Source: Octopus vulgaris (lineage: Eukaryota). From it: DNA of 64,000 nucleotides. The notes under the pieces are model-generated. The model was not told where the DNA came from. It saw nothing but the letters and a program-made list of their open reading frames with translations, and made no database searches. The stretch's first letter is position 1; each line of letters starts with the position of its first letter. The position numbers were made by a program, and so were the translations under genes. The stretch is from contig OX597833.1 in the NCBI GenBank assembly GCA_951406725.2, positions 56,730,001-56,794,000 of the forward strand, in the 5' to 3' direction. This document shows, in pieces, positions 5,111 through 60,547 of this stretch.

Positions 5111-5217
5111 ATAATCATGATAATAATCATCTACTGACCAAGTGTTAGTGAAAAATTACTTCTTAATCTTGTTTTAAAGCGAATTATCTGATTTGATTAA
5201 AGAATATTTTAAGATAC

Positions 5218-5630
5218 TCTTTTACTCTTTACTCTTTTACTTGTTTCAGTCATTTGACTGTGGCCATGCTGGAGCACCGCCTTTAGTCGAGCAAATCGAC
5301 CCCGGGACTTATTCTTTGTAAGCCCAGTACTTATTCTATCGGTCTCTTTTGCCGAACCGCTAAGTTACGGAGACGTAAACACACCAGCATCGGTTGTCAA
5401 GCAATGCTAGGGGGACAAACACACATACACAAACACACACATATACACATATATATATACATATATACGACAGGCTTCTTTCAGTTTCCGTCTACCAAAT
5501 CCACTCACAAGGCATTGGTTGGCCCGGGGCTATAGCAGAAGACACTTGCCCAAGATGCCACGCAGTGGGACTGAACCTGGAACCATGTGGTTGGTTAGCA
5601 AGCTACTTACCACACAGCTACTCCTGCGCC
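5218..5630 (-). mobile_element. SINE family A, full length
   Basis: Reverse complement of 1775-2203; 8-bp TSD TAAGATAC at 5210-5217 and 5631-5638. Confidence 0.93.
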
Positions 5631-6171
5631 TAAGATACATAACATATCTCTATCTCATGCAACCCCTCAATCCCTATGAAACTATACATTGGTTTTTAGT
5701 TGAAACAATTCAAAATACAAACATATTATTCTAATTAGTTATAGCTTAGCAATTACAACAATTTTCAATAAAGAAGTAATTTGATAGTAAACTGCTAAAT
5801 GTAGTAGTTAATGAATAGCTTAAGGCACATGTCCTGTCAGTGTCTAGCATGGATTATTTTTTGAGGTGAAATAGTTGAGTGGATAAAATGCTGATGTATC
5901 AAATTCATTTCTCAAATGTTTGCAAGTTGTGTCTTTATACCATATTTTCCTGTTTCCTGTGTTGTGTTAATAAGAAACATTTGTACTGCAGAAGAATATT
6001 AGAGGCTTATTGAAATATTATACATTTATTTTCCCAAGTAAATACAAATTAGAGTGTTTTATTCAGACATTTCTGTGAGGTGTTGAAATTAGTACTTTAT
6101 AGTTTGGATAATTTTCATAACTAAAGCTTTTTAAAGCGTGAGAAGGCCCTTCTTTCACACAAACTGTTATG

Positions 6172-18004: not shown

Positions 18005-19112
18005 ATAGAGGTATCAAAAAGTTCCTGGACTAGTTCTGTAGCATGTCAACAGATGGCAGCACAGGCGCAGTGAAAGCTACCAGTGACATTCACGAGGCAG
18101 TGTACCGAGTGACATCACAGTGTTTACTTTGCAACTTGTGAAATTTGTGATCATGTGTATGCTGTAGTCTGCAATTTTGTTATGGACAGGAAGTTGGAGC
18201 AAAGAGCAAATGTGAAATTTTGCATTAAATTTGGGATCTCTGCTACAGAGACATTGAGCATGCTTTGGCAAGCTTACGGTAATGAAGGAATAGGATCGTT
18301 GGACAATCAACAATATTGCTGATGTTGTTGGTCTGTTGTATGGATCTGTGCAGGCAATCCTAATATCTGAATTGAACATGAGGCATGTCTCTGCCAAGTT
18401 TGTCCCCTGCCTGCTGACCACTGAGCAGAAAGAACATAACACTGGAGTCTGTCGGGATCTCCATCAGCGTGCCACTGATGACTCATCTTTCATGTCAAAG
18501 ATCATCACTGGTGATGAACGTTGGGTCGACAGGTACAACCTTGAGGCAACAATCGTTGCCCTTCATCTCCACAACCAAAGAAGGCACTGTTTTTTTCCAA
18601 CATCCACAATATTGTACATTAAGAATTTATTCCCCAGGGACAGACCATCAACCGAGAGTTCTACTACAACATTTTGAAGCATCTGAGGGAAGTGACTAGA
18701 TTTGAGCATCAGTGGAAGTGACTAGATTTGTAAAGTGCAAAGAATGGGATTCTTCACAACAAAAATGCACCCTGCTACCAAGTTTCTTGCTAAAAAACAA
18801 CATGGTACTGCTTCTACACCTGCCCTATTTGCCAGATTTAGCACCTGTGGACTTCCATCTCTTCCCCAAGATGAAAATGCAGCTTAAAGGTTGCCGTTTT
18901 AACACCATTGTTGAAATCCAGAGCAAATTGTCTCACTTACAGAAAATAACTTCCAGGCCAGATTCCAAAAGTGTCAGGAACATTGGGACCAATGCATTCC
19001 TGTGCAAGGTGACTATTTTGAAGGAGATGATGTTAAAACCTAGGTAAATAAGCTATTTTTTTTTATTAAACATAACTAGTCAGGGAACTCTTTGATACCT
19101 ACTTACCTTGTA
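18005..19112 (+). mobile_element. Mariner (DD34D-type) element with TIRs and internally deleted, frameshifted transposase
   Basis: TIR AGGTATCAAAAAGTTCCTGGACTAGTT (18009-18035) vs AACTAGTCAGGGAACTCTTTGATACCT (19074-19100); MDRKLEQRANVKFC, SAKFVPCLLT, ITGDERWV, HLPYLPDLAPVDFHLFPKMK. Confidence 0.93.
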
Positions 19113-23992: not shown

Positions 23993-24494
23993 TATTGGGT
24001 TGAGGAATAATTCATGAGTGTTTTCAAATTTTAAAATGCACTCAGAAATAAAATGCATTGGCAAATTGTTTTATGTTATTTGAAAGAGAATTTTTTGCTC
24101 TACAAGATGATGTTTTGATTTTTTAATTTTATTGATTTTTGTGTATTTTCAGATCATTAAAATAGAATGTCAGGTAGATAAAACTGAGCATTTTCGACAC
24201 CATTTGCTTTTTGCATTTAATCAAGGTGTTAGGCCCACCAAAGCTGCTCATGATATTTGTGCTGTGTATAAAGAAGGAGCAATGCCACAAAGTACAACCT
24301 GCCGTTAGTTTTTGCACTTCAAAAATGGAAATTTTGACCACACTGGTTGACCAATTGAGTTCGATGAAGAGCAAGTGAATAAACTTTTTCATGAAAATCC
24401 ATGTCAAACAACCAGAGGATTGGAAGAGCAGATGGTTTGTAATAAAAAAAAAAGAAACTGTGTTGAACGACCTTCACTCAATGGGTAAGGTTCA
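23993..24494 (+). mobile_element. 5' half of a mariner element (mellifera-like), decayed
   Basis: Starts TATTGGGTTG; translates ECQVDKTEHFRHHLLFAFNQG..AAHDICAVY.EGAMPQSTT..FKNGNFD..PIEFDEEQ..ENPCQTTR..LHSMGKV. Confidence 0.85.
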
Positions 24495-24648
24495 TTGAAC
24501 TCAATTGGCCAACCAGTGTGTGATCCATCCTTGAGGTCAAAATTCCCATTTTTGAATCGCAAAATCCAACAGCGGGTGGTGCTTTGAGGCATTGCTCCTT
24601 CTCCATATACAGCACAAATCTCACAAATCTCGGTGGGCTTAACACTTC
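24495..24648 (-). mobile_element. Inverted second copy of the same mariner N-terminal region
   Basis: Minus strand ICAVYGEGAMPQSTTRCWILRFKNGNFDLKDGSHTGWPIEF; homologous to 24224-24365. Confidence 0.88.
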
Positions 24649-25491
24649 AAGCATGACAGAAGAGCAGTTGGATTCTACATGTCTCAATGTCAAAATGATG
24701 TGACCCAAGCAGCTGATTTCTTTTGGAGGGTTTTGTTTATAGGTAAAGGGGAAGGTAGCCCCTATGACTTTACTGAAGGGGCTCCAAAACTGGTAGAGGA
24801 GAACAAAGAAATAAATGATAACTGACATGATTCAGCTAAAGTGCTTAAAAGCACTCAATATACATGTGGTGGAGTCAACATATACATATAAATGTATATT
24901 ACACACACACACACACACCAGGTGAACAATGAGCCAGGTGAACAAAGAGAAAAAAACCAATCCTTTTCCAATAAATATTGTTGTTTTGCTAAGTCACCTC
25001 TAGCTGAATAGATAATGAAATAGTCAATAACTAATCACATAGCTGGTGATGATCTATTAAGCGGGCATGTATGAAAACTCTATATTTATGTGGTCCTAAC
25101 ATACACAGTTGTACAGAAGATAAAAAAGGGAATTTCAAGTGCTGAATGAGCACTTTGAACACCTGAACTGTAATTCCTTCTGTTATTTTTCTTGATAATT
25201 TCTAGGTCTAGCATGCTGTCAGATATTACGTTGCATAATATTTAGATCACAGATGTCTGTTTTTGTCGGATCTTTTGAAAATCTAATAGACATCTGTGAT
25301 TAAAAAAGAATTTATTCTTCATATTCACAAAGATAATTTTTCTTTCAAATTTTCATGTTTGTTATAGATTTTCTGGATTTAAAAATGTGTAAGAACATCC
25401 AAACAACTTATGATTTCATCAAAATTGAAACTATGTGGAATATCAAAAATATATGTGTTAAATATTTCTGACATGAGACTTAACAGATAGT

Positions 25492-27797: not shown

Positions 27798-28110
27798 CTC
27801 TCTTTTCTCTCTCTTTACTCTTTTACTTGTTTCAGTCATTTGACTGCGGCCATGCTGGAGCACCGCCTTTAGTCGAGCAACTCGACCCCGGGACTTATTC
27901 TTTTGTAAGCCCAGTACTTAGTCTATCGGTCTCTTTTGCCGAACCGCTAAGTGACGGGGACGTAAACACACCAGCATCGGTTGTCAAGCAATGCTAGGGG
28001 GGACAAACACAGACACACAAACACACACACATATATATATATATACATATATACGACGGGCTTCTTTCAGTTTCCGTCTACCAAATCCACTCACAAGGCA
28101 TTAGTCGGCC
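27798..28110 (-). mobile_element. SINE family A, 5'-truncated
   Basis: Tail and body match family A; head missing. Confidence 0.92.
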
Positions 28111-28945
28111 CTATCAAAAGTTATTCAAACAAACTAATAGATAATCTAGATCCAACTGTACAAAATTCCTCAAATTTGATGCATTCTATTAACATTTTCA
28201 CATAGATTAAATTGTAAAGAAACAGTATTAAGAAAAGTAATATAAGTGCATGACTCAAAAATTAATATTTTTATAACCTTTAATTGATTAATTTTTATCA
28301 ACTGAAAATAAATTGATTAAACTTAATCTAAAACTTTGATGTAGGAAATCTATATTTTTTATGAATTCATAAACAGAACAACATTCATAAGGTGGTTGCA
28401 AGCCTTCCACATACAATCGCTATGTGTTTGTATATGTGTATTGAACTGTAAAACATCTGCTCAAATTACATATACACTGGTACACCAAATGTTAGTACAA
28501 CCGTTATGTAATTAAAACAAACCTTCTTTATTCATCAGACTTTGAAGAAATGCCAAATTTTGCCAAACAGATAGATCTTTTTAGCCTACAGTGGCATGAA
28601 AAAATTGATGTATGAAGAATGCTTGTTGTAACATGTAAATTTTTAGCAGCCAATTTATATGTCCAAACTTATGTTAGTTAACTTGGAGTTATATGTCTTT
28701 AATATTTTTGGTGTCAATAAATCATCTTTTAGTGTTTTAACTCATGTTTGGTTTCTTTTACATTTACTTTTTTATTATTTGACTTATTACAAGTGGTTGT
28801 TGGAAATTGCCTTCACTATTCTCTCTGGTAATATATTAAGAGAACTGAGAGTCAAGGTTTAAACATAAAATTTTAAAACAAAATGAAGATCAAACCAATG
28901 ATCTACTAGAAATAGCAACCAAATCACCATAAAATTGTTAAAGAC

Positions 28946-29105
28946 GGCTGTGTGGTAAGTGGCTTGCTTATGAACCACATGGTTCCGGGTTCAGTCTCAC
29001 TGCGTGGCACCTTGGGCAAGTGTCTTCTACTATAGCCTCAGGTTGACCAAAGCCTAGTGAGTGGATTTGGTAGGCGGAAACTGAAAGAAGCCCGTCGCAT
29101 CTATG

Positions 29106-29167
<62 letters not shown>

Positions 29168-29384
29168 TGTGTCTGTGTTTGTCCCCCCAACATCGCTTGA
29201 CAACCAATGCTGGTGTGTTTATGTACCCCGTAACTTAGCAGTTCGGTAAAATAGACCGATGGAATAAGTACTAGGCTTACAAAGAATAAGTCCTGGGGTC
29301 AATTTGCTCGACTAAAGGCGGTGCTCCAGCATGCCCACAGTCAAATGACTGAAACAAGAAAAAGAGTAAAAAAAAAAAGAGTAA
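28946..29384 (+). mobile_element. SINE family A
   Basis: Head, CORE, (TG)n and tail all present. Confidence 0.92.
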
Positions 29385-30632: not shown

Positions 30633-31044
30633 TACTCTCTTTTACACTCTTTTACTTGTTTCAGTCATTTGACTGTGGCCATGCTGGAGCACCACCTTTA
30701 ATTGAGCAAATCAACCCCAGGACTTATTCTTTGTAAGCTTAGTACTTATTCTATCGGTCTCTTTTGCCGAACCACTAAGTTACGGGGATGTAAACACATC
30801 AGCATCGGTTGTCAAGCGATGTTGGAGGGACAAACACAGACATACAAACACACACACATACACATATATATATATATATATATACATATATACAATGGGC
30901 TTCTTTCAGTTTCCGTCTGCCAAATCCACTCACAAGGCTTTGATCAGCCCGAGGCTATAGTAGAAGACACTTGCCCAAGGTGTCACGCAGAAGGACTGAA
31001 CCCGGAACCATGCGGTTGGTAAGCAAGCTACTTACCACACAGCC
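30633..31044 (-). mobile_element. SINE family A
   Basis: Reverse complement of the family A consensus. Confidence 0.92.
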
Positions 31045-31224
31045 GAGTTTTTTTTTTTTCTTTTTGCTTACAAAGTTTGTGCAATATATCAAGACATGTC
31101 AAGAAGCCAGGACATGCTTTCATAGTGGACTGCAAGCTAACAGCACAGTCCACATGAGTAGTGAGACCACTGTTTACAACCAACAAGCACATGAGAAGAT
31201 GAAGAGAAACATGAACTCCCTTAA

Positions 31225-32884: not shown

Positions 32885-33397
32885 TAGCTGTCACGTAACT
32901 GACATGTAAAAAACACCTTTCGAGCATTGAACTTCGTGGAGGCAACTGGCACCCGTGCTAGTGGCATGTAAAAAGCACCTTTCGAGTGTTGGGCCTCACG
33001 GATTCGATATAGCTGATGCAAATGTCACATAACTGGCACCCGTGCTGGTGACACGTAAAAAGCACATTTTGAGTGTTGGGCTCACAGAGGCTATAACAAA
33101 TGACCAAGACCCTTGGCAATATGTCGTGCTTGAGAAGAAGACCCGTCAAACCAAGTGAAATCGTAGTTGTGACAGATACTGGTGTCCAGCAACTGGTACC
33201 CATGCTGGTGGCACATAATGGCACCCATTACACTCTTGTAGTGGTTGGTGTCAGGAAGAGCATCCAGCTGTAGAAGCCTTGCCAAATCAGGCTGGAGTCT
33301 GGTGCAGCCCCTCAGCTTACCAGCCCTGGTCAAACCATCCAACCCATGCCAGCATGGACAATGGATATTAAATGATGATGATGATGATTATGATGAT
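32885..33397 (+). mobile_element. Family C element with internal repeat units
   Basis: Repeated CTGGCACCCGTGCT..GTGRCAYGTAAAAAGCAC; GGAAGAGCATCCAGCTGTAGAA; (GAT)n; related to 7216-7710. Confidence 0.82.
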
Positions 33398-33548
33398 AGG
33401 CACAGGCATGGCTGTATAATAAGAAGCTTGCTTTCTGACCACACAGCTTTGGGTTCAGTCCTATTGCATTGTACCTTGGGCAAATGTCTTCTGCTATAGA
33501 CTCTAGTCAACCAAAGACTTGTGAGCACATTTGATAGATGGAAACTGA

Positions 33549-33620
<72 letters not shown>

Positions 33621-33828
33621 TGTCCCCCACCATTGCTTGACAACTGGTGTTAGTGTGTTTACATCCTCATAACTTAGCAGTTTGGTAAAAGAGACCGATA
33701 GAATAAGGGTCAGGCTTTAAAAAAAATTATTACTACTGGGGTTGATTCATTTGGTTAAAAGTTCTTCAAGGCTGTGTCCCAACATGGCCACAGTCTAATA
33801 ACTGAAACAAGTAAAAGATAAAAAGATA
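33398..33828 (+). mobile_element. Older SINE family A copy
   Basis: Head, CORE, (GT)n and tail. Confidence 0.87.
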
Positions 33829-33920
33829 GATATGTGAGAAGAATGGACAATATAAATATCCTGAGCTAACAGTATTTATAAATTAGGCCTTTACATTCAA
33901 TTGATCCATTTTTACACATA

Positions 33921-34312
33921 GGCGCAGGAGTGGCTGTATGGTAAGTAGCTTGCTAACCAACCACATAGTTCCGGGTTCAGTCCCACTGCGTGGCATCTTG
34001 GGCAAGTGTCTTCTGCTATAGCCCAGGGCTGACCAATGCCTTGTGAGTGGATTTGGTAGACGGAAACTGAAAGAAGCCTGTCGTATATATGTATGTGTGT
34101 GTGTTTGTGTGTCTGTGTTTGTCCCCCTAGCATTGCTTCACAACCGATGCTGGTGTGTTTACGTCCCCGTAACTTAGCGGTTCGGCAAAAGAGACCGATA
34201 GAATAAGTACTGGGCTTACAAAGAATAAGTCCCGGGGTTGATTTGCTCGACTAAAGGCGGTGCTCCAGCATGGCCACAGTCAAATGACTGAAACAAGTAA
34301 AAGAGTAAAAGA
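33921..34312 (+). mobile_element. SINE family A, full length, young
   Basis: Near-identical to 1775-2203. Confidence 0.93.
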
Positions 34313-37545: not shown

Positions 37546-39992
37546 AAGCCTGGGTGAACAACAGAGTGGACATGGCTGTGCAGTGAGACTGAAGCTGAAA
37601 CAACACGGTTGTGAAGCAAATTTCAGAACCGCACAGTTATGCAAGCACTTACGGCTATGCATCAGCCTATGATTATTATGTGCACCAAATGTTCAAAATG
37701 ATGTGAATCAGAAGATGTGACAAAGTGAGAAATAAATTATCGCTACTTCAGAGAGTGCAGAAGTTACTGAAACCATTTACATTAATATTGTTAGAATTGA
37801 AGTAGATTTATCAAATGTCAATGTAGACATCAATGAGGAAAAACCAAGATCATTTAATTAATAACAATATGAATGCTAGGCCTAAGCTAAATAGAATCCA
37901 ACATAATCTTCAAATAAGATTCAATTTGCCTCATCAACAATTCAAATAAATTGAAATTGATAATAGTTTCAAATGTAAAAACAGTTACATATAGAGATGA
38001 TATTCCAATATTTCAACTCCGATTGATCTTCATGGTTAATGTATTACAGTAATTATAGTGTTCGTTTGAAAAATTTTCGCCTACAGATATTTATAGCAAT
38101 TATAGAAATGAGTGGAGCATGATCTGTTAGATCTGCAATATTAATGAGAGGCTTGAAGTGGTGATTCGCTATCACTTAACTTACAATTCCATTATCCCCT
38201 TTATCTACCTCCTGGTTGCAGAGTATTGAATTTCTACCATCATCTGTCCTACATACCAAACACGGTCATCATTCTGAATCAGTAACACTGTGGGGGATCC
38301 TTAACATAAGTATGCCAAATATTGAAACAGAGCTATAAATTTACCTCTAAAACAGTATTTACTTTTAGATAAGGTGCCTCAGGAATAATTTTCTAAAACT
38401 CATATATACCCTAACCAGAAAACTCTTTGTTCTAAAGCTATTAATATACTGATTATAAAATCCAATTCTTTTTACATTCCAAGAAATAATGAGTAGATTC
38501 TTTATTCTTTCATATTTCAATGCAAAACTCTACATAAAATACTCAATAATTAACATATTACAACTGAGACATTCTTTTACATCCCTTCTCCTAGATTTGT
38601 AGATATTTCATGAAAAACAGAAATATCTCATACATAATCTAGTTTAAAATTTGAAGGGTTTCTCATGCTATTAGATGAGTGCTTTGTGTAGGAATCTCAT
38701 CTTTCTACTTAGTCATTAATTGCTTTAATAGTAAGCTAAGGCCACCCATATCAAAGTGTTCGTATTGAAATTAAAACCTCTCATAACAACACGAATGATA
38801 TTGTGATATTTCAGTGGGTCAACACCAACATGAATATATATAAATATGTAATAAAGTTATATGCATTTTATGAAACCTCTAAAAACACATGACTATATTA
38901 AAAATTAATTGAAAAGCAAAGGCATTCTCCCAAGAAATCTGGTCACAAAAAGGGTTAAATGAATAACCATTATTTGGATATGTCCTTATTTGTCAAGAGA
39001 CATTCCTGAAGTGGTTTTCACCACAATCCAATATTCTGAAACTATTTGCATTCTAAAATGAAATACAAGAAATACAGTTTTTTTTTTTTTTTTTTTTTTT
39101 TTCATTTATCTCTCATTTCAATACTTCAAACAATTATAAATACAGATTAGAGAGAAATTGATTAAATACAACACTAAACATGTAAAACAATTAAAGAACA
39201 CTTTAAAGTATTTTATAATTAATTTCTAAATATTTTAATGGTATGATTCACATATTTTCACAAAAATGCTCAGTACCCAATTATATATCTATATATTGAT
39301 TATATTGAAAAAAAAAAAAACCCACCAAGATTAAGTACATGTTTACGTAAAGATATTGTAATCAAAAACATTATTAATGTTTTTGATTACATTGATTTAT
39401 TATTAACATATAGATGATTATCTGTATATAAAAATACATGAGTTTATATGTATGTATAAAAGCATGGGCATGTCTTCATTTTCTTTTTTAATTTATTTTA
39501 TTCCATGAATTTTATCCCTGTTCAAAAAAAAATATTAATAAATTATATAGTTTTACAGTATAAATGCATAATGGGGTTAGATATTATCAAGAGAGCTTCA
39601 ATTGTTCAACTTTTATTAAAAATGAATATTTATAGAAATATGAATTATGAACATTTGAATAAAATATTATTTTATAATATATTACAATGTTGCCTTTATT
39701 TTACAGCTTTTGTATTTTTATAAGAATATTTATAACAAACCTCAAACATTTATCAAACACTTTTCCCTTGAATCAAAGTTAGTTTGATTTTCATTTACAA
39801 ACCCCTAAAATTTCAAACTAAATGATTGCTTACATTAAAAAAGGACCTCACTCATGTAATAATAATGAAGGGTGGTCAATTGTTTTGTTTTTGATATCAT
39901 GTTTCAGGGCAGTGAATAAAGCAATAGAAAAAATGTTTTGCTTTTAAATAAACTATTTGGTTTCTTTTTGGACAGACCTTGTATACCTAGAT

Positions 39993-40221
39993 AGTTTGCT
40001 GGACATTGTTGTAGAGCTGAAAAAGAGGTAATTTCTACTCTTCTCCTCTGGAAGCCATCTACTCGCAATACCAGAGGGCGCACACTCTCCTACCCTGATG
40101 TAATCTCCAGGGATACAGGCATCCAGCAACAGGACCTCCGTAATGCCATGATGGACCGTGAAGTCTGGCGTAGCATGGTAAATTCCATTGTCTCGACCAC
40201 GGTCGAACAATGATGATGATG
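39993..40221 (+). mobile_element. 5'-truncated LINE 3' end (RTE-related)
   Basis: Matches 43708-43937; 10-bp TSD ATACCTAGAT at 39983-39992 and 40222-40231. Confidence 0.9.
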
Positions 40222-40244
40222 ATACCTAGATGCCATTATCAACA

Positions 40245-42665: not shown

Positions 42666-42897
42666 ATTACAACAAAGACACCATTTGGGAAAATACTTCA
42701 GCAGTGAAACAAATGTACAACTCTCAAAGATATTTATATAAAACTACACACACACACACATACACACATGCAATACACACACATGTACATATAGATATGT
42801 AAACACGTGTTTACATGTTTACTCACACAGACATGCACACACAAATATCCATGTGTGCACATGTATACATACACCCCTGCATATACATACATAAAAA

Positions 42898-43425
42898 CCT
42901 TGTCAACCATCCTCACTATTGTAACTAAAAGCAGAACAATTGTCTCTGATGCTCTAAATCTTTTGAAAGGAATATTCCGAGGAGACAGACTGTCTGTGAT
43001 TCTGTTTATTTTGGCTCTAAATCCACTGTAATTTCTTTTACAAAACTAAAGTGGTTTTGTGCTAAGGTCTACAACAATAAGAAACAACAAATGTAACCCG
43101 TAATTTCTTTATTGTTGATAATGATCTACACAACTCTTATTGTGAAATGACTGGATTTAATAACAATGTTCTCAGCTGATATAAGGATGGAATCTGGCCA
43201 AAAGAAATGTTCATATTGGATGGTGGAACATGAGAAAATTCATTTCTCAAAGCAAAGTTCTTTACATTAATAGCAGCCATCACTCAGCTGTTCCACACAA
43301 TGAGTGCTGCAAATACACAAGTATTGCTGGAAATATACCTTATACAGAAGAACAAGCGTAGAGTGACCAAAGATTACTGCACCAGCTTTTAAAAATTTGG
43401 CAAAATGAGCTTTCCTCTTACACTG
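42898..43425 (+). mobile_element. R4/Dong-like non-LTR RT fragment, decayed
   Basis: KGIFRGDRLSVILFILALNPL*FLL..LDLITMFSADIRMESGQKKC..RVTKDY..KIWQNELSSY. Confidence 0.75.
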
Positions 43426-43534
43426 TTGTTATCAGCAGGCATGGAAATGGTAATTCAAGATGTTGCTGAATGATTCTCATTCAGTGCAGGGTAGAGAGAG
43501 ATAATGAATCTTATGTAAATTCAACAGGGGGGAC

Positions 43535-43937
43535 AAGCTACTGGAAACCTGGACGTTATCAAAGAAGCTTGAGAGGTGGTTGGATGGAACCTACACTCGC
43601 CTCCTTATGAGAGCTCAAAATCTTTTCTGGAAGCGTCATCCAACCAAAATGCAAATATATGGGAAACTGCCACCTGTGTCATCTCTTGTGAAAGGTAGGA
43701 GAGTCCAGTTTGCTGGACATTGTTACAGGGCTGAAAACGAGGCAATATCTACTCTTCTCCTCTGGAAGCCATCTACTCGCAACACCAGAGGGCGCACACT
43801 CTCCTACCCTGATGTAATCTCCAGGGATACAGGCATCCAACAACAGGACCTCTGTAATGCTATGATGGATCGTGAAGTCTGGTGTAGCATGGTAAATTCC
43901 ATTGTCTCGACCACGGTCGAACAATGATGATGATGAT
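43535..43937 (+). mobile_element. LINE ORF C-terminus and (TGA)n tail (RTE-related)
   Basis: ETWTLSKKLERWLDGTYTRLLMRAQN..RRVQFAGHCYRAE..LLLWKP..AMMDREVW; open frame ending in the tail. Confidence 0.88.
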
Positions 43938-44049
43938 AGCTAAAAAATCACAGCTGTATGGTAGAAATGATTGTTAAGAATAGGAAGTCAGTGTCAGTGG
44001 TACCAGAGATGCCATCATTGTTAGCCATAAACTTTCACTTGCATTTGCA

Positions 44050-51275: not shown

Positions 51276-51965
51276 TAAATAAACTATTTTAATAGCTATT
51301 CCGCAAAAGATTGCTGTTCATAAACATATGTTATTGGCAAACAGGAAATATTGATTAAAGTGCCCACTAGAGAAAAGTACTGTTTCCTCTCAACCCAACC
51401 TCTTCATTCATTCCCCATCATTATAAACACATACATGCAAACACTCACGCTCGCACGCGTAAAAATCATTCATGATATACATAAATGAATATATTAACAG
51501 AAATCAAGTCATAAATACCTACTTAATTGATGTTGCATTCAGTAGAAATAATTGAAAACAACTAAAACAAACTGTATTCCTGTCAAATATTGTTTTATAG
51601 CAACTGTTTACAGAGTGACAGTAAACTTCTCGGTTGGCAATAGGTTTTTGTCAAGTGAATCTGATCAAATCATTTTCATCATCTAAATTATCAAAACCCA
51701 ATAACACACGCACAAACATAAATAGTGGAAACTTTTATGGGATTGAAATTTACGCCAGTGCTGCATTGCCTTTGAAATAGATTTGTTTACATAAGTACTT
51801 CAAATTAAGTATATTTATATATACATACATTCATATATAAGTTGATAAAGTCTACTACCTTAATGTTCTTAAATTTTAAATCGACATCTTTGTCTATATA
51901 TCTACCTTCTCTATAATGTTATCAATTGATATGAAAATTATGTATTAATGGAAAACCTCTATTAA

Positions 51966-52049
51966 TGGCTGATGATTGCTCAACATTTTAAAACTGTTGT
52001 AATATTTACAACATTTAATATAATGATGTAGCATGAAACGATCGTACCA
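51966..52049 (+). ncRNA. Type-I hammerhead ribozyme motif with intact catalytic core
   Basis: TGG-CTGATGA-T-TGCT..(TGTTGTAA-tat-TTACAACA)..AGCA-T-GAAAC-GATC-GTA-CCA; stem III is the perfect palindrome ACGATCGT; predicted cleavage after 52046. Confidence 0.8.
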
Positions 52050-52449
52050 AATTACCGAAGTTATTCTTGTTTGCTTATTTTGATTATATATATATATATA
52101 TAAAACAATATTGTAACACCTACTGCCAGAGGCACTCATTCTTGCAACACCTGTACAAATGAGTGCAAGTCCCTAGCAAGGCTGAAAAGCTACATCCTTG
52201 CTGCTCATTTTTAAGAGAACAATAATCATATATATATATATATATATATATCAAGGCTTTGATCACCTCAGGACTATAGTAGAAGATACTTACTCAAGGT
52301 GGCATGCATACTCCACACAGACATACACACTTCTTTATAAGACTATGAAACTTTATAATTGGAAAGAAGAACAATTCAATTAAAATGATTAATTATTACA
52401 TTAAAAAACACTTTAATCTTCTTAAGTTTACTTTTTAAATTTAAAAATT

Positions 52450-59552: not shown

Positions 59553-59976
59553 CTCTTTTACTCTTTTACTTGTTTCAGTCATTTGACTGTGGCCATGCTG
59601 GAGCACCGCCTTTAGTCAGCAAATCGACCCCGGGACTTATTCTTTGTAAGCCCAGTACTTATTCTATTGGTCTCTTTTGCCGAACCGCTAAGTGACGGGG
59701 ACGTAAACACACCAGCATTGGTTGTCAAGCAATGCTAAGGGGACAAACACAGACACACAAACATATACACACACACAAACATATACACACACACATATAT
59801 ATATACATATATACGACAGGCTTCTTTCAGTTTCCATCTACCAAATCCACTCACAAGGCATTGGTCGGCCCGGGGCTATAGCAGAAGACACTTGCCCAAG
59901 ATGCCACGCAGTGGGACTGAACCCGGAACCATGTGGTTGGTTAGCAAGCTACTTACCACACAGCCACTCCTGAGCC
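59553..59976 (-). mobile_element. SINE family A, full length
   Basis: Reverse complement of the family A consensus. Confidence 0.93.
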
Positions 59977-60547
59977 TAACTGTTTGATAATCATAAATAA
60001 AAATCCTAAATTGCTCAACAGAAGGTATTTTATAAAGGAAGAGATTAGTCTAAGTGCCTATCAAACATACAACCACCAAAATGACAAACCCACTACTCAT
60101 CAAAACCTTTCATCCTCTGCTCAATGTCATACTGTCTTTACTCTAGTTTTTCTAGTACAAGAGTTAATAAACAGATTCTGTTCTTCAGAACATTCTCGGT
60201 ACATACCAGCTCTATTTGAATTGACTTTTTACACCCACTCTCTTGCCATCTCCTCTACTCAGTTTCTCTTCCTCACCAGATATTATGTGCAGTTCTTTAT
60301 TCCAAAGAGTACCACTCAACAACTCACTTCCTGCAATATAATAACCTCCTACTTTGCAACCATTGTATTAACAACACTTAAGTGACTCTTCCCTAATATC
60401 TGATGCAAAGAAGGCCCTCCCATACTCAACATGCAATGCTTCTCCTTCATAGTAATGCCAATAAAATGTTACACACACACACACACACACACATTGTAAC
60501 TTACAAAAGAATATGAATGTTATTCTTAAAAAATACACTGTGAATGA

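Follow-up and report, generated by a model that had tools for sequence, protein, structure and literature searches.

A type I hammerhead motif with a long stem II in the terminal repeat of a truncated Hydra-clade Penelope-like element from Octopus vulgaris

Parts of the motif and its standing against chance

We analysed a window of 64,000 nucleotides of Octopus vulgaris DNA (contig OX597833.1, positions 56,730,001 to 56,794,000, forward strand) that holds, at 51963-52054, a stretch reading like a hammerhead ribozyme with an unusually long stem II. The locus raises the question of whether this is a self-cleaving RNA in its own right or part of something larger, and how such a motif could work. 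A preliminary description had listed an intact core, a GUA triplet, an 8-nt palindromic stem III, a TGG/CCA stem I and a long stem II closed by U·U, and each of these lies where it had been placed. By direct reading, CTGATGA occupies 51969-51975, GAAA 52035-52038, the stem III palindrome ACGATCGT 52038-52045 and the GUA triplet 52044-52046, with stem I formed by TGG (51966-68) and CCA (52047-49). The TAAT/ATTA extension that had also been proposed for stem I is not a full addition because it reuses T51966, so that stem I has 3 bp, or 6 bp at the most if it bridges a 2-nt bulge. The stem II domain (51976-52034) is 59 nt long, with 57 nt inside its closing pair, U51976·U52034. It contains TGCT/AGCA and ACAT/ATGT pairings and an inner hairpin of 8 bp (51995-52002 with 52006-52013) with a 3-nt loop. 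This triloop lies about 23 bp away from the core, and a contact between loops 1 and 2 of the canonical kind was not recognised by eye. The parts are as follows.

51943..51967, plus strand: competing 10-bp hairpin, formed from a 9-nt near-palindromic direct repeat and, by prediction, occupying the 5' strand that stem I needs (MFE, pair probabilities)
51963..51968, plus strand: stem I, 5' strand, three firm bp and at most six across the bulge (sequence; two of three pairs change on both sides across families)
51969..51975, plus strand: catalytic core C3-A9 (sequence; unchanged in six of six subfamily majorities; intact in 46 of 49 U·U copies, counted on fetched copies partly picked by similarity)
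51976..52034, plus strand: stem II domain, 59 nt, comprising U10.1·U11.1, 4 bp, a 2-nt bulge, 5+5 bp around a 6-nt bulge, a 2-nt bulge and the 8-bp hairpin with its triloop (folds, subfamily substitutions, pair counts)
52035..52038, plus strand: core G12-A13-A14-A15.1 (sequence; intact in 49 of 49 U·U copies, chosen in the same way)
52038..52045, plus strand: palindromic stem III / loop 3, predicted to form an 8-bp intermolecular helix in a dimer (duplex -10.0 kcal/mol; two-copy cofold)
52046..52047, plus strand: predicted cleavage site 3' of A17 (GUA), which we take from hammerhead numbering
52047..52054, plus strand: stem I, 3' strand (sequence; pair counts across families)

The window by itself is an unconvincing test against chance. 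A loose type I descriptor had a single match in the 64 kb, at this motif, and the same descriptor matched 18 of 100 dinucleotide shuffles (mean 0.2 matches). CTGATGA alone occurred 17 times against 11.7 expected, which is no enrichment, and the fold z-score of 51940-52090 was only -0.65. The Rfam hammerhead models gave no match at the gathering threshold or at E <= 10, a miss that is probably due to the long stem II. Because the descriptor matches shuffles, the fold z-score is weak and Rfam is blank, the case cannot be carried by one locus; the family does beat chance, because the core is invariant and the stems covary across paralogues.

The same core invariance and covariation bear out the earlier reading as a hammerhead, here of type I. 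The motif has CUGANGA, GAAA and an NUH core at a three-way junction, and stems I, II and III each show double-sided changes, with the relatedness of the sequences as a caveat. In place of the consensus G10.1-C11.1 (R-Y) closing pair we found U·U, which is not disqualifying because U·U is a documented natural, active exception. Judged by its sequence, we conclude that the motif at 51963-52054 is a real hammerhead-ribozyme motif of type I.

The host element and its relatives

Searching the 2.8-Gb source genome at the DNA level, we obtained 44 matches at 89-100%, with 40 of 1,500 candidates scored. These copies align with the window over about 51840-52084, with variable 5' ends and fixed 3' stops, and define two further features.

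51840..52084, plus strand: 3'-terminal piece of a Hydra-clade Penelope-like element (PLE), 5'-truncated to about 245 nt and covering the end of the 3' UTR / pLTR, with ends set from alignments (92-98% identical to 29 other fetched loci; 96.6% over 264 nt to the 3' end of the ORF-bearing copy L031)
52085..52102, no strand: (TA)n tract of the target site, adjoining the insertion at its short 3' end (alignment; a TA-rich flank also lies at 51812-51839)

Among 145 fetched copies, the distance from the cleavage site to (TA)n is 35-39 nt in 68 and 135-139 nt in 33; the longer tail is present in 56, and (TA)n terminates 132, as is characteristic of Hydra-clade targets. Many copies have an inverted copy at their 5' side. 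The family combines the traits of PLEs: pLTRs with a hammerhead, 5' truncation, inverted 5' copies and an optional tail. Exact 17-mer matches in the genome numbered 397 for the U10.1 variant and 811 for its G10.1 sisters, with 0 for the controls. Paralogues keeping the core, which the preliminary description had named as something to search for, were therefore found as hundreds of dispersed copies, with the core unchanged in the six subfamily majorities. Tandem arrays, also sought, were not seen at this locus, nor were tandem 170-450-nt non-coding units, since the window has a single copy and 5' ends vary. That description was accordingly right in part; it had missed that the motif is the pLTR hammerhead of a truncated PLE copy with hundreds of dispersed relatives. 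The window motif, we conclude, has hundreds of nearly identical counterparts, left like it by the tail of a Penelope-like element. The window copy is a fragment of about 245 nt with no ORF, a single ribozyme and no partner, and most likely it is inert unless read through on the plus strand.

Elsewhere in the window, dispersed repeats of about 200-240 nt that appear SINE-like occur in both orientations, joined by microsatellites (1759-2192, 5215-5632, 27811-28053, 28922-29383, 30640-31050, 33381-34309 and 59559-59994). Decayed fragments at 18077-19047, 24404-24831, 39953-40225 and 42795-43939 read like what we take to be mariner-type transposase and LINE ends.

Walking upstream on the same strand, we found a non-coding 3' UTR of about 1.05 kb and then a broken ORF with an RT (YRDD), a poly-Asn linker and an endonuclease-like end. 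The motifs of this own-family ORF are DKT, YRDD, CxCx5C, CxxC and CxH; RWK is present in sister families B and C and was not recovered from the two broken own-family copies checked. A protein search identified these sister families with open frames of 941-1,091 aa, and several of their full-length elements carry a related hammerhead in both pLTRs and have the same two 3' ends. An intact 981-aa sister ORF, folded from a 111-sequence alignment, reached a pLDDT of 78, with linker residues 693-834 disordered (pLDDT <50). A fold search with this ORF gave telomerase RT as the best match (E 7e-9), TERT filling nine of the 11 top rows, and its atlas look-alikes, which serve as leads only, were RVT_1/HTH_animal and GIY-YIG clusters at 0.94-0.96. 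The sister ORF is thus a single ORF joining a telomerase-like RT to a C-terminal GIY-YIG, as in EN+ PLEs, and the window family has the same domains in broken frames. Pfam recognised no RT or GIY-YIG domain in own-family or sister ORFs, and among six homologues it gave a GIY-YIG match in P0001 only; PDB sequence and profile searches with this family's ORFs likewise returned neither domain.

Hydra-clade PLEs are defined by RWK, DKT, CxCx5C, CxxC and CxH motifs and by having no CCHH (section 11 of PMC8557442). The sister ORF has all five motifs and no CCHH, with DKT, the CxCx5C linker, and CxxC and CxH around E and N, and with only one Cys between the GIY- and YIG-equivalent motifs. The comparison with the Hydra proteins published there was of motifs by eye. 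The usual length below 3 kb does not hold here, a family B copy (L109) being about 5.0 kb; that trait is typical, not diagnostic. A first reading of the ORF as Neptune or Nematis, made from its motifs, was dropped against the clade definition in PMC8557442. We likewise rejected a further ORF, antisense or recoded, within the 3' UTR, where nearly every frame has stops of all three types and the longest open stretch is 84 aa. By these motifs and its flanks, the element is a Hydra-clade PLE inserted in (TA)n. We found no intact own-family ORF among 150 scored protein matches or among the copies examined, and for this reason the window family may have been mobilised in trans.

Families B (L105-L110, L113, L114) and C (L111, L112) are young Hydra-type PLEs with open ORFs of the lengths given above. 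Their pLTRs are 98.6-99% identical, exact matches to the family B hammerhead motif number 1,476 in the genome, and both families are possibly still active. The poly-Asn linker between RT and endonuclease (L031, L044, L051, L060, L105) is (AAT)n-encoded and very variable in length. The 3' UTR also differs among subfamilies, at about 590, 1,050-1,080, 1,320 and 1,550 nt (L097 and L102 compared with L058, L103 and L109), while hammerhead and tail stay homologous.

These observations bear on two readings in which the window copy would be something other than a PLE remnant. One is that it is a stand-alone or host-co-opted self-cleaving RNA acting at this locus, as its intact core and its mere 6 differences from the U·U subfamily majority over 239 positions, none of them in the core, would allow. 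The copy is, however, one of hundreds equally intact, and its divergence fits neutral decay; CpG decay probably explains its U-A at pair 10.2 (89 vs 409 exact matches), its stem I is predicted to be sequestered in context, and inspection recognised no host exon nearby. We consider such a local role very improbable. Even less credit goes to the motif as a monomer of a non-LTR retrozyme, that is, a tandem, non-autonomous, circRNA-producing repeat, although a type I hammerhead with palindromic stem III in an AT-rich animal repeat speaks for it (PMC7229834). The window has a single copy, 5' ends are variable without a fixed unit, and in longer copies the upstream sequence runs into the RT-EN ORF, a linkage that contradicts this reading and leaves it next to no likelihood.

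Long stem II and the U·U closing pair

The stem II domains of families A (the window family), B and C are 59, 60 and 57 nt long, and each folds as one long interrupted hairpin. Between subfamilies S1 and S5, eight majority-level substitutions fall in paired stem II positions; seven keep a Watson-Crick or wobble pair and the eighth makes the U·U. Over the same interval the core and the three firm stem I pairs showed zero majority-level changes, while the count upstream was 14 of 127; for the core this difference reaches only about p = 0.05 by hand arithmetic. Pair counts were made on 48 chosen sequences, of which 43 are distinct. Pairing was kept in 92.8% of cells, with double-sided changes at eight pairs; 0 of 500 shuffles reached this, and slid controls paired at 30-51%. 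Related sequences can beat the shuffle control without structure, and deriving the structure from the same sequences inflates the slid control. The distal part of stem II aligns poorly between families and out of register, with several family-A pairs broken in B and C.

In the Hydra rows of File S2 of PMC8557442, stem II is at most about 26 nt, compared with 57-60 nt here, though loops of about 30 nt occur in two Chlamys-type rows marked as deviant. A literature search that left subscription papers, Repbase/Dfam and bioRxiv supplements outside its scope found no description of this PLE family or of a stem II of about 60 nt in PLE hammerheads, and PMC13282606 and bioRxiv 10.64898/2026.07.22.740005 do not mention the motif in the terms searched. 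What sets the motif apart, as far as these alignments go, is its stem II of 57-60 nt, which three families keep with covariation. We also observed further, unrelated hammerhead families with a 43-55-nt stem II, palindromic stem III and inverted pairs (L096:9603-9839, L101:8700-8942, L104:8776-8849, L106:8298-8628). A long stem II seems to be common in this genome.

The U·U pair, which had been noted before as a feature that might lower the activity of this copy, is indeed present; its reading as a defect of the copy does not stand, the pair being fixed in the lineage and a known natural variant. The base of stem II forms a series among subfamilies: GTACT/AGTAC, GTGCT/AGTAC, GTGCT/AGTGC, GTGCT/AGCGT, TTGCT/AGCGT and TTGCT/AGCAT, the window type being last. 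In an endonuclease tree of 22 rows, from which 25 rows without a linked hammerhead were dropped, the GTACT/AGTAC type was basal with families B and C as outgroup. A tree of EN and 3' UTR with the hammerhead excluded (24 rows, root taken from families B and C) gave a ladder of G-C, G·U and U·U, in which 12 of 12 U10.1 copies fell into one clade (100/100) nested in G10.1 copies. Further sub-lineages are nested within this clade. Because all U10.1 copies form a single clade with nested sub-lineages, U·U was fixed once, in a source element that continued to be copied. Tip lengths of the U·U and G-C subfamilies are similar in the same tree, and the greater divergence of U·U copies from their own majority (6.3% vs 3.3-3.9%) reflects several pooled U·U sub-lineages. 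The window's A at 52033, which makes U-A at pair 10.2, is scattered on the tree and is probably later decay of a CpG (89 vs 409 exact 22-mers), a known mutational process. Taken together, the trees indicate that U·U is lineage-wide rather than decay and arose once, by way of G-C, G·U and U·U. They show a source lineage that, as reconstructed, kept core and stems while its closing pair changed along this path, and went on making copies.

There is precedent for such a pair. U10.1·U11.1 is described as natural and as the best-tolerated mispair (section 8 of PMC3088659), and by our count it occurs in 14 of 25 Hydra-clade hammerheads in File S2 of PMC8557442, two of those rows being identical. An axolotl U·U hammerhead was 22% cleaved in 1 h in monomeric form, and its dimer performed much better (section 15 of PMC7229834).

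A second repeat family with a type I hammerhead closed by U10.1·U11.1 accounted for 38 of the 100 listed rows of a genome motif search (L185, L192, L194, L199, L200, L215-L244, e.g. G000:C2:172987838-172987902). Its stem II is 45 nt and its stem I 5 bp; a tail and (TA)n ends are present, and some copies are inverted or in partial tandem. In 30 loci no ORF was found, and the family may be a non-autonomous PLE derivative or a retrozyme-like element. One recurring match of that search looks like LINE coding sequence and was set aside as not a ribozyme.

Proposed working of the ribozyme and comparison with known systems

As a monomer the motif is predicted to misfold, the core pairing with the palindrome (P(stem III) no higher than 0.03). 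For two copies the cofold energy is -39.0 kcal/mol, compared with -32.8 for two separate monomers (2 x -16.4 kcal/mol), and the predicted topology is that of a double hammerhead, in agreement with the earlier suggestion that the palindromic stem III points to dimer use. The upstream hairpin is predicted to compete in the construct proposed in the preliminary description, 51940-52090, where P(stem I) is 0.09-0.19 vs 0.65-0.80 for 51955-52060. We conclude that the motif is very probably the terminal-repeat hammerhead, of type I, that belongs to a Penelope-like retrotransposon of the Hydra clade and sits here in a truncated copy of about 245 nt. It would likely act as a weak, conditional ribozyme that needs a second copy or the protein of the element to fold.

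The 3' ends of insertions lie about 37 or 137 nt beyond the cleavage site. On the 5' side, the pLTRs in full-length family B copies start about 170-250 nt before the 5' hammerhead, which is more than unit length. Because insertions run past the site and 5' repeats start upstream of the hammerhead, the reverse-transcribed template was continuous across the cleavage site. For an Anolis PLE (PMC11167929), the tail is set by two internal sites at which RT starts, the ribozyme is protein-assisted, uncut RNA is the main template and no reads end at the cleavage site; cleavage is unneeded for insertion in vitro, and catalytic mutants still insert. As in Anolis, RT in the octopus element may initiate internally, at either of two positions on the downstream side of the ribozyme. 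Cleavage would be slow or conditional: two copies would pair through their stem III palindromes to form a double hammerhead, and multi-repeat transcripts could in this way be processed without destroying the template. The long stem II may itself be a selected structure of the element RNA. Four runs of assembled contigs contain related sequence under four organism labels, at 80% likeness and with other families mixed in, and are silent on ends, strand and level.

Two other accounts use much of the same evidence. In the model of PMC4209133, which differs from ours on template continuity, both pLTR hammerheads would cut as a dimer, the unit RNA would be ligated to a circle, and RT would run past the re-formed site. 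The insertions spanning the cleavage site, the more than unit length of the family B copies and the dimer topology favoured in the cofold are all compatible with a circle, but an uncut read-through transcript leaves the same DNA pattern, and the Anolis findings of unprocessed RNA as main substrate and no reads ending at the site (PMC11167929) speak against it. We regard the circle as possible but doubtful. The other account is that this lineage no longer uses the hammerhead for catalysis: the shift from G-C to U·U would be relaxation, and the fold would be kept only as an RNA signal for packaging or RT binding. The stepwise weakening of the closing pair, the predicted misfolding of the monomer and the insertion-competent Anolis mutants (PMC11167929) fit such a loss. 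So does the contrast between the U·U lineage, in which we saw no intact ORF, and the young G10.1 family B with its 1,476 exact matches. Against it, no base of the core changed at majority level, U·U is the one tolerated mispair (in the section cited of PMC3088659) and the state of those 14 published Hydra-clade families (PMC8557442, File S2), and a second family in this genome has U·U as well. On balance we think the loss of catalysis unlikely, and prefer the weak, conditional hammerhead of the PLE terminal repeat. A bolder extension, to which we give equally little weight, is that the ~60-nt stem II is a separate module, an RT-EN docking site or built-in brake, that makes cleavage conditional; the subfamily ladder would then record selection retuning the ribozyme from G-C through G·U to the weak U·U pair used by cnidarian, echinoderm and crustacean Hydra-clade elements, so that templates last until copied.

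The closest published systems are the Hydra-clade PLE hammerheads (Craig et al. 2021, PMC8557442; Penelope-1_HM, Hydra-1_aJap, Hydra-1_oBim). In the parts of that paper on this clade, as here, the hammerhead is a sense-strand type I near the 3' end with a short stem I and a short self-complementary stem III, the U·U pair is frequent, targets are (TA)n, and the proteins share the DKT, CxCx5C, CxxC and CxH motifs, with RWK shared by sister families B and C. In contrast, most of its Hydra rows have a one-nt loop where the octopus family has an even 8-nt palindrome. Hydra-clade elements there are generally under 3 kb with a usual tail of 30-40 bp, whereas the octopus elements are about 4.3-5 kb, with the poly-Asn linker and a 3' UTR of 0.6-1.5 kb, and have a tail of about 100 nt. 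Hydra-1_oBim has a different hammerhead and is not the same family as the window element. The PLE minimal hammerheads of Cervera and De la Pena 2014 (PMC4209133; D. virilis type, small palindromic helix III) are also located in pLTRs, with a long helix II, a short helix I and a dimer-type architecture, and in the passages on them occur mostly as lone motifs in truncated copies. Unlike these, the octopus motif has no extra nucleotide after A9; the G10.1-C11.1 pair that PMC4209133 calls highly conserved is replaced, and the helix II of 6-8 bp given there is far exceeded.

The axolotl retrozyme HHR_Amex2, as described in PMC7229834, has U·U at the base of helix II and combines a weak monomer with an efficient dimer, measured in axolotl and predicted here. 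It is a 350-bp tandem non-coding repeat with short loops, whereas the octopus element is a dispersed, ORF-bearing PLE. The Anolis Poseidon element PAc (PMC11167929) shares the pLTR hammerhead, the two alternative downstream 3' ends (tail) and AT-rich targets; it belongs to a different PLE clade, and its ORF starts within the hammerhead, compared with about 210 nt past the cleavage site for the family B ATG.

By itself the locus is ordinary, since the literature already describes PLE hammerheads, the U·U closing pair and a Hydra-clade element in an octopus. What is new is a long-stem-II structural form of the PLE hammerhead, with an evolutionary series leading to the known U·U state. Because Rfam missed this form here, and because exact matches to its motifs within a single genome number at least about 2,700 (397 + 811 + 1,476), hammerhead counts in such genomes may be underestimates. 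The ordered natural series of variants, together with an intact young sister ORF, makes the role of PLE hammerheads, and selection for weak cleavage, directly testable.
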